DNA from: a virus
Taxonomy: Duplodnaviria > Caudoviricetes
Strand: one strand, 5' to 3'
DNA length: 64,000 nt
Virus record (IMG/VR): IMGVR_UViG_3300020331_000002
Shown here: piece after piece, positions 8,530 to 28,153 of the stretch
How the letters are laid out: every line of letters starts with the position of its first letter
Numbering within the stretch: the stretch's first letter is position 1
Position numbers and translations under genes: made by a program
The notes under the pieces: model-generated
Database searches by the model: none
Seen by the model: only the letters and a program-made list of their open reading frames with translations
What the model was told of the DNA's origin: nothing

Positions 8530-9714
8530 ATGAGTAAGGTTCTTAATGAGAATTGGGGAGTTACCAAGAACGCTTTGCTGGAAGGCCTTCAGGGTTCTGT
8601 TCGCAAGACTACTGATGTAGTACTGGAAAATGCTCGAAAGCAAGCGCTTAGAGAAAGTGCCACGCATGGTTCAACCGGTACTGGTAATATCGCCACTGTA
8701 AACAAAATTATGCTTCCGTTGCTGCGCCGCGTTATGCCTAGCACGATTGCAAATGAAATCATGGGTGTTCAGCCGATGACTGGTCCGGTAGGCCAAATCC
8801 ATACTCTACGTGTAAACTACGCAGAAGACGGTGCTGGTTTTAAAGCTGGTCAAGAAGCGTTTAACCCGTTTGACATCGCGAAAGCGTACTCAGGTAACAA
8901 CGTAGCGAACTCGTCTACGTCGCCACTACCTGGTCCAAGTTCAACTGCCTCTATGGAAGGTGAACCTGGTCGCCGTATGTCTGTAAACATCTTGAAAGAG
9001 ACTGTTGAAGTTAAATCTCGTAAGCTATCTGCGAGCTGGACTTTCGAAGCTGCACAAGATGCTGAAGCTGTTCATGGCATCGACATCGAAGCAGAAATCA
9101 TGGAAGCTATTGCGCAAGAAATCACAGTTGAAATCGACCAAGAACTACTTGGCCGCTTACGCAACCTAGCTGGCGCACCTGCACAAAGCTACGATCAGAA
9201 CGCTGTTTCTGGTACTGCTACATTCGTAGGTGACGAGCACGCCGCTCTTGCAACTATGATGAACCTTGAAAGTAACTTGATCTCACAACGTACACGTCGT
9301 GGTGTTGCGAACTTTGCGGTAGTAAGCCCTGTGGCACTAACTATCCTACAGTCTGCGACTACTTCTGCGTTCGCACGTACCACTGAAGGTAAGTTCGATG
9401 CACCTCTTAACACTAAGTTAGTTGGTACTCTGAACAACGCTATGAAGATCTACGTAGATCAGTTTGCGTCTTCTGACGAAGCTGTATTACTAGGTTATAA
9501 AGGCAACGAGACTGACGCTGGTGCGTTCTACTGTCCTTATATCCCACTTCAATCAGTTGGTCCAATTATTGATCCTACTACTTTCCAACCAGTAGTAAGC
9601 TTCATGACTCGTTACGGTTACGTTGAGTTAACTAACACTGCAAACTCTTTCGGTAACGCAGGCGACTACTACAGCCGCATCGGTATCAACACTTCTAACT
9701 TGTCATTCTTCTAA
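8530..9714 (+). CDS. gp23: Major capsid protein
   Basis: GVQPMTGPVGQI, SRKLSASWTFEAAQD, AFYCPYIPL and MTRYG motifs of T4 gp23. Confidence 0.97.
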   Translation: MSKVLNENWGVTKNALLEGLQGSVRKTTDVVLENARKQALRESATHGSTGTGNIATVNKIMLPLLRRVMPSTIANEIMGVQPMTGPVGQIHTLRVNYAEDGAGFKAGQEAFNPFDIAKAYSGNNVANSSTSPLPGPSSTASMEGEPGRRMSVNILKETVEVKSRKLSASWTFEAAQDAEAVHGIDIEAEIMEAIAQEITVEIDQELLGRLRNLAGAPAQSYDQNAVSGTATFVGDEHAALATMMNLESNLISQRTRRGVANFAVVSPVALTILQSATTSAFARTTEGKFDAPLNTKLVGTLNNAMKIYVDQFASSDEAVLLGYKGNETDAGAFYCPYIPLQSVGPIIDPTTFQPVVSFMTRYGYVELTNTANSFGNAGDYYSRIGINTSNLSFF

Positions 9715-9732: not shown

Positions 9733-9760
9733 AAAAAAGCCGCTTTCGAGCGGCTTTTTT
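9733..9760 (+). terminator. Strong bidirectional intrinsic terminator
   Basis: AAAAAAGCCGCT-TTCG-AGCGGCTTTTTT. Confidence 0.9.
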
Positions 9761-9790: not shown

Positions 9791-9867
9791 ACTATAAAGG
9801 AGGACGTATGTAAATCGTAGAAGATAGAAAACTAGGAAACCCAGTTAGAGAACCGTAAGGAATTTTC

Positions 9868-9896
9868 TTGCGGTGATATAAATTGTGCTGTATTGT
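9868..9896 (+). promoter_or_regulatory. Possible sigma70 promoter TTGCGG-17-TATTGT
   Basis: Canonical spacing upstream of ORF 9932 and the tRNA. Confidence 0.45.
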
Positions 9897-9931
9897 GTGT
9901 AACACCTGAAAACTATACATGGATTATTACA

Positions 9932-10270
9932 ATGCAGCCTTATGTGTATTATGGCTACGGTATTAAACTAGGCGAAGTTACTGAAGAAGAGTTTGACCAA
10001 ATAGAAGATGATGACTTTTTTCAAATTGCTTGGTTTAGTGACGGTTGCCGTGAGCAAGATTCCGGCATTGCATTTATAGACAATGCGTATCACTCACCAT
10101 GGGACGAAGACACTACGGAAAAACCTTCCCTGTCTTATGCTGTTGATACCGGTGATATTGACTCAGCGCGTATGAAGTATTTGCCGGAGTTACAAAAAGT
10201 TCTTGACCATCCGATGGTCAAAAAGTATAATAAGCAGATTAAATTTTACGTTTGTTGTACTGAAGTTTAA
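9932..10270 (+). CDS. Hypothetical acidic protein
   Basis: ORF track 9893-10270; ATG at 9932 preferred; PYVYYGYGIKL start typical of small phage accessory proteins. Confidence 0.75.
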   Translation: MQPYVYYGYGIKLGEVTEEEFDQIEDDDFFQIAWFSDGCREQDSGIAFIDNAYHSPWDEDTTEKPSLSYAVDTGDIDSARMKYLPELQKVLDHPMVKKYNKQIKFYVCCTEV

Positions 10271-10280
10271 CAGTAAATGT

Positions 10281-10351
10281 GGCCCTGATTTGGCATAAGT
10301 AGCCGGTCTCTAAAACCGCGAAAGTGGGTTCGAATCCCGCCAGGGTCACCA
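10281..10351 (+). tRNA. Compact 71-nt tRNA with CUA anticodon (amber suppressor type; Pyl-like size)
   Basis: Acceptor GGCCCTG/CAGGGTC, discriminator A, encoded CCA. T-arm GTGGG-TTCGAAT-CCCGC. Anticodon loop CT-CTA-AA closed by CGGT/ACCG. Short D-arm ATTT-GGCAT-AAGT. Confidence 0.85.
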
Positions 10352-10373
10352 ACCTAGTTTACAAGGATATCTA

Positions 10374-10502
10374 ATGGTAATTCCTGTTGTCAATATTTAT
10401 TGCATCAACTCGCCGTTCATTTGCTCGTTCGGTGGGCTATGCCAATATACAACATCGTCTGGTGGCTGCCATTACCCTGGCCCGTGCAAATTTAAAGTAT
10501 AA
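10374..10502 (+). CDS. 42-aa Cys-rich peptide missed by the ORF track
   Basis: SD AAGGA; MVIPVVNIYCINSPFICSFGGLCQYTTSSGGCHYPGPCKFKV*; fills the gap between the tRNA and the oxygenase. Confidence 0.55.
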   Translation: MVIPVVNIYCINSPFICSFGGLCQYTTSSGGCHYPGPCKFKV

Positions 10503-10517
10503 TTAAGGAGAAACGTC

Positions 10518-10895
10518 ATGCGTTAGAACACTCAAAAACCATCACTTAAAATGTGGCGCTGGGGCAACGATAAGTTCGCCACTGGCTATAGAATATTCAC
10601 TTTATTCCATTCCAAAACACTCGGTATCGACTTGTATCTATTCAGGTATCCCGAGGGCTCATTCATTCCTAAGCATAAAGATCCTAAAACAAACGGACCT
10701 ACTACTCGTATAAACTTAGAACTCCGTAAAGCTCAGCAGGGCGGTGTTTTCAAGTGTAAGCGTAAATGGTCGTTGTTTGATAGATTACACGTCTTTAGAG
10801 CAGATAGAGACTATCACTCTGTGTCTAAAATAGAGAAAGGCTCTCGTTGGGTTTTGTCTTTAGGGATAGCAAACGTGTTCAAGAAACCGAGATAA
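10518..10895 (+). CDS. 2OG-Fe(II) oxygenase-family protein with an in-frame amber codon at codon 3
   Basis: HxD (PKHKD), distal H (DYHSV) and R (GSRWVLS) pattern. SD AAGGAG before ATG 10518, then CGT TAG, in frame with ATG 10551, which has no SD. Confidence 0.75.
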
Positions 10896-10899
10896 TCGT

Positions 10900-11241
10900 C
10901 TATTTATTGGAAGTAATAATCAAGAATAAGCCGAGTGTGATGAATAACATACCGGCTACTTCTTGTATGTTGACTATCCTGTCTTTAAAAATCATTGTTT
11001 GGATAATTATTGCGCATAAGAATGAGCATCCTTGCGCTACGAGCGCAAGGGCTGGGTAACTATAATGTGATGATCCCGTACTGTAAAAATAAGTATATAA
11101 CCCGGTAGCAAGCCAAGTTATCGGAACGCATAAAAGTGATATGTAGAGTGAGTCTTGTAAATTGTTACTTCCTCTACTTATCGCCCATATGTTTGGAATC
11201 TGAACGAGTATTGACGCGCATAATATCGTTAACCATATCAT
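10900..11241 (-). CDS. Four-TM small membrane protein, SMR/DMT (EamA-like) superfamily
   Basis: 113 aa, four hydrophobic segments, C-terminal AGMLFITLGLFLI typical of SMR TM4. Confidence 0.6.
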   Translation of the reverse strand: MIWLTILCASILVQIPNIWAISRGSNNLQDSLYISLLCVPITWLATGLYTYFYSTGSSHYSYPALALVAQGCSFLCAIIIQTMIFKDRIVNIQEVAGMLFITLGLFLIITSNK

Positions 11242-11270
11242 TATTATTATATCCTTGATAAACCCCGTTG

Positions 11271-11299
11271 ATTATATAAGGTGCGCGACAATTAGTCAA
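11271..11299 (-). promoter_or_regulatory. sigma70 promoter TTGACT-17-TATAAT
   Basis: Near-consensus, upstream of the SMR-like gene. Confidence 0.85.
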
Positions 11300-11306
11300 T
11301 AAAATG

Positions 11307-11313
11307 CTAAATA
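11307..11313 (+). promoter_or_regulatory. Late promoter box CTAAATA
   Basis: Upstream of 11340. Confidence 0.65.
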
Positions 11314-11339
11314 GACATATATAAAGAATAAGGTACCCT

Positions 11340-11990
11340 TTGATGAGATTCCAAGATATTAAAGAAGCCCGTAGAACTGGAGACGGTATTTCTTATAAAG
11401 AGAAAAAAGTAAAGGGTGAGCTGGACCGTGTTATAGCCGAATTGAGCGGTAAAGAATCACAAATGTTCACCGTTGCTGCTAAATACTATCGTAAGATAGC
11501 TCAAGAAGAAGAAAAAATTAAAAGAGCACGCGATGCTCTAAATGAAAAAATGAAGCAACGGTTCGATACGCTTTTTGATCCAACGGATGTGATCTACACT
11601 CGCGTAATCGAAACGGCTAGCTTAACCGTTTCAATGAGTAAGAAGTCTGAGAAAACCACCCAAACGGTGACAGACGTAGACGGCTTATTCGAAGACCTAT
11701 TAGGCCTTGCTCCTGAATTAGCTGACAAAATCGGCCAGTTACGAGAGCAATACGTGAAAGTTGAGAACAAAGTTACTCAGTCACGTCTAGGCAAACCGAA
11801 GTTACACGATCCCAAGGAATCAGTTGACAACGGCGAAAGTGCACTCGCGGAAGGAGTGCTTGATAGTATCGTCGACTCTATCAAAGCTTACGCTATTAAA
11901 CTGATGAATTGGATTAGTGACTGGGCGCGGGGGTACGACCGCAAGCTTGATTCAATCAAGTCTAGAGCACAGGGCGTCGGAATCCTGTAA
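11340..11990 (+). CDS. Hypothetical late (probably head-internal) protein
   Basis: Late box; N-terminus MRFQDIKE and internal LAEG resemble gp21 cleavage sites. Confidence 0.75.
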   Translation: MMRFQDIKEARRTGDGISYKEKKVKGELDRVIAELSGKESQMFTVAAKYYRKIAQEEEKIKRARDALNEKMKQRFDTLFDPTDVIYTRVIETASLTVSMSKKSEKTTQTVTDVDGLFEDLLGLAPELADKIGQLREQYVKVENKVTQSRLGKPKLHDPKESVDNGESALAEGVLDSIVDSIKAYAIKLMNWISDWARGYDRKLDSIKSRAQGVGIL

Positions 11991-21554: not shown

Positions 21555-22558
21555 TGACAGTTCAAAGAATTGGCTACGCCTGCAAATATGTTGTGGACGA
21601 CAAAGCCGAATACAAACGTTTAAATCAGCGAGCAACGACTAGGAAAAAACTGATGTCGTTGCCAGTACCTGACGCCCGAGCGCTAGTGCGAGAGATTGTT
21701 GAGCACAACATTAACTCAATGGCGCTACAGTTTAGTAAGTTAGCGACAATGCCGCTTGCCTTGCGTATGTGTCGTATAGGGTCGGAAGTAATCCCGCTTT
21801 ACAGTCACGAGTATTTTAGTGATGTATTGTACCCTGAAAATGACGAAGCAACGGTCGAATTTAACGAATTCCTGTCAGCGGGGCTTTATGCTGTTGGCGA
21901 GTTTGCGCGGGCAAACGACATACGCCTGAGTTTTCATCCAGGCCAATTTACCGTACTCGCAAGTGACCGATCCGACGTCGTTGAAAAGTCTATTATTGAG
22001 TTCGAGTACCACGCGACTGTGGCTCGTTTAATGGGTTACGGCCGTGAGTTTCAAGATTTCAAATGCAATGTCCATTTATCAGGCAAAGGTGGCGTCCCGG
22101 TCTTCCGTGAAACATTCGAGCGCTTGAGTCCCGAAGCCCAACGCATAATTACGATTGAAAACGACGAGTTCACAAGTTCACTTGACCGCTGCCTGGAAAT
22201 AGCCGATCTGTGTCCTGTCGTGCTTGATGTACATCACCATTATATTAACTGCGGCCAGTACATACAGCCAGAAGACCCGCGCATAGAAGAAGTTATAGCG
22301 TCCTGGCGCAGCAAACGACCGGTACTACATTACTCGGTATCGCCTGAAGAATATGTGCCCCAGACTACCGGTTTCCCTTCGCTTTCGGAGTTAGTTGAGT
22401 CCGGTATACCTCGTAGTAAGTTAAGAAAACATAGCGACTTTTACCATAACACATGTATGAATAAATGGATAGCGAAATTCAGAGACAAGTTTGATATAAT
22501 GTGCGAGTCCAAAATGAAGAATGTAGCTTCATTCCAACTTTACGAATCCATAAAATAA
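21554..22558 (+). CDS. uvsE: UV-damage endonuclease (UvdE/UvsE family)
   Basis: RIGYAC, RLSFHPGQF, IENDE, VLDVHHH, HYS, HSD and DIMCESKMKN motifs. Confidence 0.92.
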   Translation: MTVQRIGYACKYVVDDKAEYKRLNQRATTRKKLMSLPVPDARALVREIVEHNINSMALQFSKLATMPLALRMCRIGSEVIPLYSHEYFSDVLYPENDEATVEFNEFLSAGLYAVGEFARANDIRLSFHPGQFTVLASDRSDVVEKSIIEFEYHATVARLMGYGREFQDFKCNVHLSGKGGVPVFRETFERLSPEAQRIITIENDEFTSSLDRCLEIADLCPVVLDVHHHYINCGQYIQPEDPRIEEVIASWRSKRPVLHYSVSPEEYVPQTTGFPSLSELVESGIPRSKLRKHSDFYHNTCMNKWIAKFRDKFDIMCESKMKNVASFQLYESIK

Positions 22559-22570
22559 CACGAATGGATC

Positions 22571-24304
22571 TTGGTAAATATAAACAAAAACCAAGGTCCG
22601 ACAGTGAAATATATTGTAAAAGTTGCACAACCCTATACCATCGATGAGGTGGTATCTGAGTTTGGATTATCCGTTGTTAAAATCCTACAAGCTGTCAGTG
22701 GCTATTTGATTATTGACGAAACGGATAATGAAAAAATAGTTGAAATGCGAAAATCAGGGAAGTTTCGCATTATTGACGCTGAGCGCGAAATATCACGTTT
22801 CCCCGAAGAACACAACCAACCAATTGAAAACATTGAGTCACAGGATTCCACATCTGACTCACAACTACCTGCAGTGAAATATTGGCATCTAAACGCAATC
22901 AGTAATACTGCCGGCGCGACTTCGGTCTATGAAGAATACGACTTTAGACTAGACGGATCCGGTACTGATATATACATAATTGATTCTGGCATTAATCCCG
23001 ATCACCCTGACATAACGGGCCGCGTGTTTTCTGTACCGGGTGTTGATTCAGATGTAGAATACAACTTAACTGATACTGACGGCCACGGGACTACGGTAGC
23101 CATTTTCGCGGCCGGAATTAACGCAGGCATCGCACGCGGTGCGCACGTATGGTCAGCAAAGTGGGAAACCACTAATATCCAAATAGCAATAGCGCTTGAT
23201 GCGGTATTAGCGCACCATCAAAATAAAAGTAACGGTCGCCCAAGTATCGTAAACATGAGTTTCGGCACAAATGTTACGAGTGATAATCCTTATTATCACA
23301 GTGACGAGCCTGATAATATTAAACCTTTTGACGAGTACAGTACTGATATGGCTAAGGCGATGATTGCTGCAGGCATGCATGTTGTAGCGGCTGCCGGTAA
23401 CGGGTTTGAGAATAAAACTAACGGCACCTTTTTGCCGATGTTGGCAGAACTAATCAACCCAGCCCAGGCGAGTATTACCTCAGATGTAATTACCGTAGGC
23501 GCCACAAACACTGGCAGATATACAATTGCCAACCAAAGTCAAGAAAGTCCTAATAACGAAATGTCAGTGTTTTCTAACTACGGCCGTGCTGTTACTATTT
23601 CGGCACCGGGACATCGTTTGCCTCATTTGCGTTACGATCAAACGTATCATTTTGACTTCTCCGAATACGTGGTGTCAAGTGGTACTAGTTTCGCCGCACC
23701 GTTGGTTGCTGGGGTAATTAGTTGTTGGTTGCAAGAAAAACCATCCGAGACCCCTGCTAGTATAAAATCACAATTAGTGAGTATAGCGTCTGACGGGCTT
23801 ATGTCCAATTTAGGCGGCACGCATGAAAACACAGACGGTGTAATTGCATGGGGCGGTGATATAATACAGGTAGAAGACACAAGCGAAACGGACGTTGAGT
23901 ATTCGGTTTACGATTATCAGATTGATCTAACTACACCGAATAAAATTCTATTCAACCCATGGCAAACGTATACCCCTGTTTATAATAACTCTAGTTTAAG
24001 CCAGATCAGCGGGGACACGGACGGGAATATCGCACCAGTGGATCTTGCAGCCGTATTTCAAACGATACTGGGAGAAGAGCCCTACGGTGTCCAGTACAAT
24101 TATGACGGCGGTATACCGGGCGTGACTATTGACTCCGGCGGTACGTTATCTGGTACGGCAGTGCCCGCTGGCGAGCATACGTTAGAGATTGAATTCACCA
24201 ACGGTTACCAAACATTCACCCGTGTATTTGATTTGACTATCCCGTCTATATATGATACGGAGTGGGTAACATTCACTGGACGATTGACTGTGGAGCAAGC
24301 ATAA
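22571..24304 (+). CDS. Subtilisin-like S8 serine protease with C-terminal Ig-like domain
   Basis: Catalytic triad IIDSG / DGHGT / SGTSFAAP, VAAAGN oxyanion site; C-terminal GVTIDSGGTLSGT Ig-like motif. Confidence 0.9.
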   Translation: MVNINKNQGPTVKYIVKVAQPYTIDEVVSEFGLSVVKILQAVSGYLIIDETDNEKIVEMRKSGKFRIIDAEREISRFPEEHNQPIENIESQDSTSDSQLPAVKYWHLNAISNTAGATSVYEEYDFRLDGSGTDIYIIDSGINPDHPDITGRVFSVPGVDSDVEYNLTDTDGHGTTVAIFAAGINAGIARGAHVWSAKWETTNIQIAIALDAVLAHHQNKSNGRPSIVNMSFGTNVTSDNPYYHSDEPDNIKPFDEYSTDMAKAMIAAGMHVVAAAGNGFENKTNGTFLPMLAELINPAQASITSDVITVGATNTGRYTIANQSQESPNNEMSVFSNYGRAVTISAPGHRLPHLRYDQTYHFDFSEYVVSSGTSFAAPLVAGVISCWLQEKPSETPASIKSQLVSIASDGLMSNLGGTHENTDGVIAWGGDIIQVEDTSETDVEYSVYDYQIDLTTPNKILFNPWQTYTPVYNNSSLSQISGDTDGNIAPVDLAAVFQTILGEEPYGVQYNYDGGIPGVTIDSGGTLSGTAVPAGEHTLEIEFTNGYQTFTRVFDLTIPSIYDTEWVTFTGRLTVEQA

Positions 24305-27212: not shown

Positions 27213-27760
27213 ACACTATAGGAACTAAAACGAAATTGCAATTGGCTTCTGGCGAGTTAATTAATGCGACTGCCCTGCGTGCAGGCGATATGTTACGCAC
27301 TATTAAGATAAAGCACTTGCCTGCTATAGACTCGCCTGAGTTTTTATCATGGCGCACGGACGAACTTGAATTAGAATACACAGAGGCAGAAGTAGTCACG
27401 CTCAAAACAGTGCAAGAAAAAGTTGAGATGATTAACATCAATAACGATGTATGGCTTTCGCCTGTTATGTTGGTGTTGATCAAGCGCGAAGAACAGTGGA
27501 TGTGGTCACTAGCATCTGCCCTAGTGCCAGGAGACATTATTGTAGGTCATGATCGACAAGATATAAATGTCTTATCAGCCCATACTTGCGAAGAAAACTC
27601 TTCCATTAACGTAATGACATCCGTAAATAATAGTGCGATAGTTGGGTGTAATGGCTGTTTTGTGATATTTACACAGGTAGCCGGCGGCAAATTAATGCAG
27701 TTTGGCAACAAAGTATTAGATCAAGACGCTCTTGCAGCAATGGGAATGACTATCGAGTAA
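27209..27760 (+). CDS. Stand-alone degenerate Hint-fold-like protein
   Basis: KTKLQLASG..I.A..LRAGD, W..A..L.PGD and terminal G.NG..V patterns; the Cys1, TxxH His and terminal HN are not conserved. Confidence 0.55.
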   Translation: MNTIGTKTKLQLASGELINATALRAGDMLRTIKIKHLPAIDSPEFLSWRTDELELEYTEAEVVTLKTVQEKVEMININNDVWLSPVMLVLIKREEQWMWSLASALVPGDIIVGHDRQDINVLSAHTCEENSSINVMTSVNNSAIVGCNGCFVIFTQVAGGKLMQFGNKVLDQDALAAMGMTIE

Positions 27761-27781
27761 ACTTACAATTTGGAGTTCGTC

Positions 27782-28153
27782 ATGAAATTTATGAAACGAG
27801 TACGTGTAGACAATACTAATACTGATTATGGTTATATGGTATATGGCGGCGGTACAGTAGTGTACTGTGATGACTTGGACGACTTGAACAGAGATCTTTA
27901 CATGCCTGTTCAGAATGTTAGCTCGTATGATGGCAACGTGCCCTTGGTGACAGACTTGCAGAAGTTTGCAAATCTGAATGACTTAGAGGTGGTACCAAAC
28001 TGCGACCCTCATATGGACACATACGAACTCCATGATCGTAACAGAAACATAAAGTTTGTGTTGACTGATTACGATGATGAAAAGATGTTTATGCACCTGA
28101 TGTTGACTGGTAATCCGTCAGTTAAGCTAGAAATGCCTGCAGAAGTGGATTGA
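27782..28153 (+). CDS. Hypothetical protein
   Basis: GGAG SD before ATG 27782. Confidence 0.7.
   Translation: MKFMKRVRVDNTNTDYGYMVYGGGTVVYCDDLDDLNRDLYMPVQNVSSYDGNVPLVTDLQKFANLNDLEVVPNCDPHMDTYELHDRNRNIKFVLTDYDDEKMFMHLMLTGNPSVKLEMPAEVD

Follow-up and report, generated by a model that had tools for sequence, protein, structure and literature searches.

The DNA analysed here (the window, a stretch of 64,000 nucleotides, nt) stems from the IMG/VR virus record IMGVR_UViG_3300020331_000002 (Duplodnaviria; Caudoviricetes) and represents the minus strand, positions 150684-214683, of the complete genome (310,672 bp, with direct terminal repeats) of a giant marine phage with the standard genetic code. 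At 10281-10351, on the plus strand of the window, it carries a compact 71-nt transfer RNA (tRNA) gene with a CUA anticodon, a D-replacement region, A73 and an encoded CCA end, as recognised by direct reading, by a covariance model of its relatives (model R1) and by ARAGORN in mitochondrial mode. On the same strand follows a gene for a cupin/2-oxoglutarate (2OG)-Fe(II)-oxygenase-like protein (10518-10895; phrog_13746, PF13640 below threshold, AlphaFold2 (AF2) model), whose reading frame starts with a UAG “gate”: the Shine-Dalgarno sequence AAGGAG (10505-10510), ATG (10518-10520), CGT and an in-frame TAG (10524-10526), followed by an A. The structure of the RNA is conserved and its anticodon invariant among its relatives, the in-frame UAG co-occurs with CUA tRNAs, and the gate is unique in the genome.

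The element is built from a 7-bp acceptor stem (10281-10287 paired with 10341-10347, plus strand as all parts), including G1-C72 and G2-U71, which is followed by the 15-nt D-replacement region ATTTGGCATAAGTAG (10288-10302) holding a GG that matches C56 of the T loop. The anticodon arm (10303-10319) consists of a C-C mismatch (10303 with 10319), a 4-bp stem (CGGT/ACCG) and the 7-nt loop C-T-CTA-A-A (10308-10314), in which U33 and a purine at position 37 flank the anticodon (10310-10312). After a variable region of 4 nt (GAAA), the T arm (10324-10340) pairs GTGGG with CCCGC around the 7-nt loop TTCGAAT, and the 3′ strand of the acceptor stem (10341-10347) leads to A73 at 10348 and the encoded CCA at 10349-10351. 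Acceptor, discriminator base, CCA, T arm and a 7-nt anticodon loop are thus all present as in an ordinary tRNA; what fails is a 3-4-bp D stem (positions 10-13 with 22-25) with its U8/N9 linker, and detection by standard models. Direct reading agrees with the initial annotation, made by a model from the sequence alone, in the acceptor stem with its G1-C72 and G2-U71 pairs, A73, CCA, the TTCGAAT loop and the CU-CUA-AA anticodon loop, and it places the mismatch that had been noted at the top of the anticodon stem at the C-C position above the 4-bp stem. The D stem ATTT/AAGT proposed there fared less well: it can be drawn at -20.3 kcal/mol, but RNAfold favours a GGC/GCC stem (-24.3 kcal/mol), and the consensus of the family is a 2-bp mini-hairpin, which in the window copy reaches -18.3 kcal/mol. 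None of the three D-region folds has comparative support in the window copy and thermodynamics leaves the choice undecided; covariation cannot choose among them in this lineage because the copies of the same type are nearly identical.

In its bacterial mode, ARAGORN called neither a tRNA nor a transfer-messenger RNA (tmRNA) in the window, and Rfam gave no match there at gathering thresholds. Below threshold, Rfam returned the tRNA-like domain of tmRNA (16.8 bits, best hit of its clan) and mascRNA (22 bits), and nothing else. The metazoan-mitochondrial mode of ARAGORN, in contrast, called a 71-nt “D-loop” tRNA(cta) at exactly 10281-10351. Model R1, from which the window sequence was left out, scored the element at 37.3 bits (E 8e-9 over 144 kb and 1.8e-8 over the whole genome). 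The proposal of a UAG-reading RNA that has the shape of a tRNA and a reduced D region is supported. Across the whole genome, it is the sole CUA tRNA.

Related loci were gathered by anchoring on the downstream gene in viral contigs, metagenome contigs and cultured phages. Nearly all of them hold a tRNA-like gene of 68-71 nt, which follows the same plan with wholly different stem sequences. With model R1, built from four 70-nt relatives, 23 distinct family sequences were recovered in jumbo phages; cultured carriers include the T4-like Vibrio phage nt-1 of V. natriegens (tRNA at NC_021529.2 90462-90529, minus strand) and the Xanthomonas phage XaC1 (OR258281.1 306200-306269). In the 5′ half, the common plan comprises a 7-bp acceptor stem and a connector of 7-9 nt, i.e., a 2-bp mini-hairpin with GG in its loop (consensus AU/AU around UUGGC). 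The anticodon helix is extended; a 1x2 internal loop separates its “stem1” of 4 bp from a “stem2” of 3-4 bp, below which the loop reads YU-CUA-A(A/C), while in the 3′ half the T arm abuts stem1 without a variable loop and is followed by the acceptor strand, mostly A73, and CCA.

This plan is supported by covariation, whose figures come from the 23-sequence alignment fitted to the model. Standard pairs occupy 93.2% of the cells versus 35-41% in controls with slid partners, both sides have changed at 21 of the 22 pairs, and none of 500 shuffles matched the observed covariation score. Family-wide, the acceptor stem is 99% and the T stem 100% paired, with double changes at four of the five T-stem pairs. 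RNAalifold independently predicted four of the five helices, the 2-bp mini-hairpin being the one omitted. Covariation extends to the elbow, where a connector GG goes with C56 (as in the window) and a connector GA with U56, and where T54:A58 is replaced by A54:U58 in two lineages. The covariation of stems and elbow therefore indicates that selection maintains a tRNA-like L shape in these RNAs, with stem1 in place of the D stem. Every stem has diverged, whereas all 23 members keep an identical loop core, TCTAA.

Standard tools see little of this family: from a set of 14 members, the bacterial mode of ARAGORN recognised three and its mitochondrial mode 12. The amino-acid identity cannot be inferred from the sequences, because the first base pairs vary, G3:U70 occurs in none and the discriminator is A73 in 20 of the 23. 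A pattern scan of the viral contigs (TCTAAA, T loop, CCA) returned, among the matches listed, mostly ordinary tRNAs of 74-78 nt and no new compact member outside the gene-anchored loci. In Vibrio phage nt-1 (L009, NC_021529.2) the compact CUA tRNA at L009:2810-2877 is unannotated; two 77-nt tRNAs lying upstream of it have the anticodons UAA and CAA, yet neither shows the long variable arm that a tRNA-Leu should have.

Within the family, the window copy is a variant. It has near-identical counterparts in three contigs (L003, L004 and L171), and instead of stem1 these four copies show a longer connector, an anticodon stem of 4-5 bp and the 4-nt variable region GAAA. The only other lineage with this sub-plan is L176, which combines the mini-hairpin with a linker that ends in UAG, a stem of 5 bp and the variable region CAAA and has kept the connector-to-T-loop covariation. 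When the window is compared with L003, 7 of 149 flanking positions have changed and 1 of 71 within the element, a difference which is consistent with constraint and not significant; the sole substitution, shared by L003 and L004, turns the acceptor pair U6-A67 into U6-G67 and thereby keeps it. Over its last 32 nt, which take in acceptor stem, T arm and 3′ trailer, the window locus matches a tRNA-Glu(CUC) gene on another phage contig without a single difference; this identity suggests past recombination between tRNA genes. This tRNA-Glu(CUC) gene is a normal one of 77 nt (L002:3375-3457) in an unrelated viral contig of 77 kb, which additionally has an ordinary CUA tRNA at 210-281.

The unusual start of the neighbouring gene is conserved as well. 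In the window, AAGGAG stands 7 nt before ATG 10518, and the TAG is codon 3, in frame with the whole downstream open reading frame (ORF). Throughout the W(K/R)WG subfamily to which the gene belongs (~30 lineages), every gene examined starts with ATG, continues for 0-8 codons (0-6 in most) and then meets an in-frame stop, which is TAG in all but two lineages. The base 3′ of the TAG is A in most lineages and G in four (L006/L198, L190, L199 and L200); in E. coli, an A after UAG is a context of weak termination and good suppression. The peptide after the TAG, (T)KP(T/S)L(R/K), is kept through synonymous changes, and at least six lineages offer no start codon (ATG, GTG or TTG) on the way from the TAG to the conserved W-x-W-G. 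This conserved peptide and the lack of a later start in these lineages imply that this stretch is translated from the upstream ATG through the UAG. In nt-1, the gated gene, whose start reads ATG TAG, is annotated from an internal start only (L009:2576-2809) and thereby loses its conserved N-terminus.

Genome-wide, the gated gene is the only case of a Shine-Dalgarno sequence and an ATG followed within up to 10 codons by TAG and a long frame. TAG is otherwise an ordinary stop, ending 55 of 397 naive ORFs, and a survey of in-frame extensions past TAG stops in the genome gave no other convincing TAG-interrupted gene. Three long extensions that came up as candidates for recoded genes were in fact adjacent genes, antisense frames or non-coding frames.

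The loci with a TAA gate (ATG AAA TAA; ATG AAC TAA) are found at L181:~977-990, at L182:~1486-1499 and, in both L187 and L188, at ~1480-1493; in L187, no start codon occurs beyond the gate TAA. Odd tRNAs of 82-84 nt with the anticodon CCA lie near TAA-gated genes (L206:2507-2590, L181:1723-1806, L187:2326-2407), and two of them have a long variable arm. Their loop, CUCCAAA, is one base away from the CUCUAAA of the compact family.

The gated gene encodes a protein of ~115 aa with invariant H-x-D, H and R residues (HxD...H...R motif), i.e., an enzyme-like metal site. It scores 19.2 bits against the Pfam family 2OG-FeII_Oxy_3 (PF13640), below the cutoff of 27. The AF2 model (predicted local distance difference test, pLDDT, 85) shows a minimal double-stranded beta-helix (cupin/DSBH), and fold searches returned generic cupin/DSBH neighbours, including AspH and prolyl hydroxylases, with template-modelling (TM) scores of 0.5-0.6. 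In this model, the UAG precedes the folded core and borders on N-terminal residues of low confidence; among relatives, its place shifts between codons 2 and 8. The UAG is therefore most likely a gate or sensor of translation and not the site of a special residue.

Gate and CUA tRNA co-occur across ~30 lineages. All gated loci of sufficient length have a CUA tRNA on the strand of the gene, usually ~20 nt before its Shine-Dalgarno sequence or a few nt after its stop codon. In seven lineages, a CUA tRNA of normal size (74-78 nt) takes the place of the compact one, and two phages without a CUA tRNA close to the gate have a normal-sized one 1.9 kb or 60 kb away. Six cultured phages with a homolog of a more distant subfamily have no in-gene TAG, and their whole genomes contain neither a compact tRNA nor any CUA tRNA. 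A normal-sized CUA tRNA at L164:1501-1575 (minus strand), which serves the gated gene of contig G002, has C33 instead of the near-universal U33. One of the ungated cupin homologs, in Pseudomonas phage D6 (L148, OQ363659.1), lies between an RlmN-like radical-SAM methyltransferase and RtcB, a neighbourhood which hints at an RNA-related role of the cupin. A hit in D6 that was considered as a compact tRNA turned out to be an ordinary tRNA-Trp.

With regard to charging, domain searches of the complete genome, whose controls were positive in reference genomes, detected no RF-1, tRNA-synt_1b, 1c, 2, 2b, 2d or PTH2 domain. The search for aminoacyl-tRNA synthetase and release-factor genes to which the initial annotation had referred thus ended without a find among the families covered, and its remark that the window holds no PylRS extends to the complete genome, where the PylRS-type domain tRNA-synt_2d is missing. 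Without a synthetase domain of the searched classes in the phage, a host enzyme must charge the tRNA, as far as known enzymes are concerned; from the two options left by the earlier reading, a host or a phage synthetase, the host hence stays as the only known one. In gamma-proteobacteria, and in E. coli amber suppressors, CUA tRNAs are usually charged with Gln or Lys, one of which would be the likely residue here.

The element is located inside the block of virion genes. The head protease and a phrog_10922 protein lie upstream of the major head protein gene (8530-9714), all on the plus strand; the latter is followed by a hairpin-plus-T-tract terminator at ~9733-9760. Directly past this terminator, at 9797-9813, a strong Shine-Dalgarno sequence (AAGGAGG) precedes a start-stop mini-ORF (ATG TAA). 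Between terminator and tRNA lies an ORF of 112 aa with no family assigned (9932-10270, plus strand). The gap between tRNA and gated gene measures 166 nt in the window and ~20 nt in other lineages; most of it is occupied by a Cys-rich ORF of 42 aa (10374-10502) with its own AAGGA ribosome-binding site, for which neither PHROG nor Pfam gave a match. The major capsid gene shares ~67% DNA identity with its distant relatives in Rak2/PBECO4-like jumbo phages. A megablast search of the locus against cultured phages gave no match, and in a distant blastn search the capsid gene alone matched.

The genome is densely coding under translation table 11, with intact ORFs. Elsewhere, at 21-44 kb, it encodes 23 ordinary tRNAs (bacterial mode of ARAGORN), none of them with a CUA anticodon; CCA is encoded in 19 of these 23 genes and likewise in the compact one. 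Four of the ordinary calls are overlong, namely Asn (92 nt), Lys (85 nt), Glu (85 nt) and Pro (95 nt) at genome positions 21617-21708, 21874-21958, 23374-23458 and 27697-27791, respectively, and may contain introns or be miscalls.

Hints of transcription come from two sides. A candidate sigma-70-type promoter on the plus strand (TTGACC, 17 nt, TATAAT; 10203-10231), with 11 of 12 consensus matches and identical in L003, is placed ~50 nt before the tRNA, where the upstream ORF has its 3′ end. Moreover, two studies of marine metatranscriptomes yielded contigs that span 9823-11400 at 100% identity and show the TAG unaltered; these contigs connect the upstream ORF with the tRNA and the gated gene. 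In one run, the contig of the capsid gene ends at the terminator and has about seven times the depth of the downstream contig, a drop which fits RNA rather than contaminating DNA.

On these grounds, the element probably is a host-charged, D-stem-less amber-suppressor tRNA dedicated to the UAG at codon 3 of the neighbouring gene. In the proposed course of events, the tRNA would be transcribed together with the gene, as the promoter and the bridging contigs suggest, and host RNase P and 3′ trimming would release it down to the encoded CCA. It would then fold into an L shape in which the GG of the D-replacement region docks on the T loop, as the covariation of the family suggests, and be charged by a host aminoacyl-tRNA synthetase. 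The charged tRNA could read the UAG at 10524-10526 in competition with release factor 1, so that the protein would be made only in its presence. The class of D-stem-less tRNAs is not known to work on bacterial ribosomes.

Several points weigh against this interpretation. The window copy and its counterparts in L003, L004 and L171 are devoid of the 4-bp stem1 found in most members, the window copy has the lowest-but-one model score of the 23, and three folds compete for its D region. An in-frame ATG at 10551, after the TAG, leaves UAG-independent initiation possible in this lineage, although no Shine-Dalgarno sequence precedes it. In two related lineages the gate is TAA, and no UUA (ochre-reading) tRNA was found near these genes in up to 10 kb of sequence. 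The RNA evidence consists of assembled contigs, which cannot show mature ends, strand or level and could include DNA. Furthermore, the benefit of locking a single gene with an adjacent key is unexplained.

Among the alternatives, it is unlikely that the element is a tRNA-shaped RNA without a decoding function, serving either for processing or stability at the 5′ end of the mRNA, where RNase P would cut it as tRNA punctuation, or as a decoy of release factor 1 or a host anticodon nuclease, with the UAG as the stop of a tiny regulatory upstream ORF (termination-reinitiation). The usual position of the tRNA, ending ~20 nt before the Shine-Dalgarno sequence and ATG, would suit excision as a means to make an mRNA 5′ end, the best Rfam score belongs to mascRNA, which is a tRNA-like processing product, and no charging enzyme has been identified. 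However, a processing signal needs no invariant CUA loop, several phages have the tRNA downstream of the gene or kilobases away, and in seven lineages normal-sized CUA tRNAs act as substitutes. The codons after the UAG are, moreover, conserved as protein, and at least six lineages have no start codon beyond it. A decoy, as already raised in the initial annotation, would explain neither the invariant CUA nor the co-occurring in-frame UAG.

A relic, possible for the window lineage only, is quite unlikely as well: here the tRNA would be decaying or rebuilt, the gene translated from ATG 10551 and ATG-CGT-TAG a leftover. The missing stem1 and the near-bottom family score of the window copy, the in-frame ATG after the TAG and the 32-nt identity to tRNA-Glu(CUC) with its suggestion of recombination would fit such a scenario. 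Initiation at 10551 would, however, have to do without a Shine-Dalgarno sequence, whereas ATG 10518 has AAGGAG at ideal spacing. Three independent contigs retain tRNA, Shine-Dalgarno sequence, ATG and TAG, with fewer changes in the element than in its flanks (1/71 against 7/149) and the affected pair kept; every helix but stem1 is intact, and L176 shares the sub-architecture together with an intact connector-to-T-loop covariation.

Highly improbable, finally, is an orthogonal pair resembling tRNA-Pyl or tRNA-Sec, in which the odd shape excludes host synthetases and an unrecognised phage enzyme loads a special amino acid: such systems typically have an unusual tRNA architecture, the neighbouring protein has an enzyme-like metal site and most genes of the genome are without assigned function, but among the classes searched no synthetase-like domain exists in the complete genome, the ~115-aa cupin is the sole conserved partner, the UAG drifts from codon 2 to 8 ahead of the folded core, and ordinary-shaped CUA tRNAs fill the same job in some phages.

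If the element is a dedicated suppressor, tRNA and gene could even form a closed circuit, a notion which we regard as doubtful. The output of the enzyme would report read-through of the UAG, the enzyme would have the suppressor tRNA or the machinery of termination and decoding as its target, and the phage would in this way hold read-through in the infected cell at a level under its control via the D-stem-less tRNA. Eukaryotic 2OG oxygenases act on eRF1 and the ribosomal protein uS12.

Suppressor tRNAs are known from phages. TAG-recoded “code 15” gut phages encode a suppressor tRNA(CUA), and noncanonical suppressors were only suspected to exist there (Borges et al., bioRxiv 10.1101/2021.08.26.457843). 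Orphan CUA tRNAs were described in the jumbo phages XacN1 (PMC5852040) and RsoM2USA (PMC8504454), in both cases with no recoded genes found. The system described here shares with these phage suppressors a UAG-reading phage tRNA in a standard-code host, the lack of a phage synthetase and presumed charging by the host. Unlike in code 15 phages, TAG stays an ordinary stop and, instead of many essential or late genes interrupted by TAG in frame, a single, adjacent gene has an early UAG. Moreover, the window tRNA differs from known phage suppressors in having no D stem and in escaping standard finders.

In animal mitochondrial tRNA-Ser(AGY), the D arm is absent, a short loop takes its place and the anticodon helix is lengthened. 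The compact tRNA resembles it in the short loop in place of a D stem and in its normal acceptor and T arms, and most family members also in an anticodon helix lengthened by pairs of the former D and variable regions. In contrast to tRNA-Ser(AGY), the phage tRNA must work with bacterial ribosomes and EF-Tu, reads a stop codon and keeps the G18G19-T-loop contact and a canonical T loop; the likeness implies no common descent. With tRNA-Pyl, to which the earlier reading had likened it, the window tRNA has the CUA anticodon, the small size and a reduced D region in common. Beyond these traits the resemblance is superficial: tRNA-Pyl has G73, a 6-bp anticodon stem, a 3-nt variable loop, no G18G19 and no T-Psi-C, whereas the window tRNA has A73, a mismatch on top of a 4-bp stem, a variable region of 4 nt, GG and TTCGAAT, and the phage genome is devoid of PylRS-type domains, pyl genes and recoded methylamine genes. 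The tRNA-like domain of tmRNA (Rfam RF00023) is similar in its acceptor and T arm and in a stem-less D loop with GG, but the element differs from it in G2:U71 instead of G3:U70, a full anticodon arm, a length of 71 nt, the lack of a tag frame and a score of 16.8 against the gathering score of 47 bits. On the level of the gate, prfB, encoding release factor 2, is autoregulated by an early in-frame UGA and a +1 frameshift. Here, too, an early in-frame stop ties the output of a gene to termination versus alternative decoding; unlike in prfB, the alternative is not a frameshift but a dedicated tRNA that suppresses the stop, and the product has a cupin fold without a shown link to termination. The literature searched contained no account of D-stem-less phage suppressor tRNAs, nor of a lone early-UAG gene and the tRNA that goes with it.

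D-stem-less tRNAs are oddities of animal mitochondria with co-evolved partner proteins. Judging from their sequences, at least 23 such RNAs now come from phages of ordinary bacteria, where they apparently read stop codons on bacterial ribosomes. The orphan suppressors of standard-code jumbo phages such as XacN1 and RsoM2USA had been left without a target; in the phages described here, a concrete and conserved target is at hand. That standard finders overlook the compact class also bears on recoded phages for which no suppressor was detected (Borges et al.). The compact tRNA and its single UAG gate would constitute a natural, ready-made translational switch, with carriers in culture in two phage-host systems.

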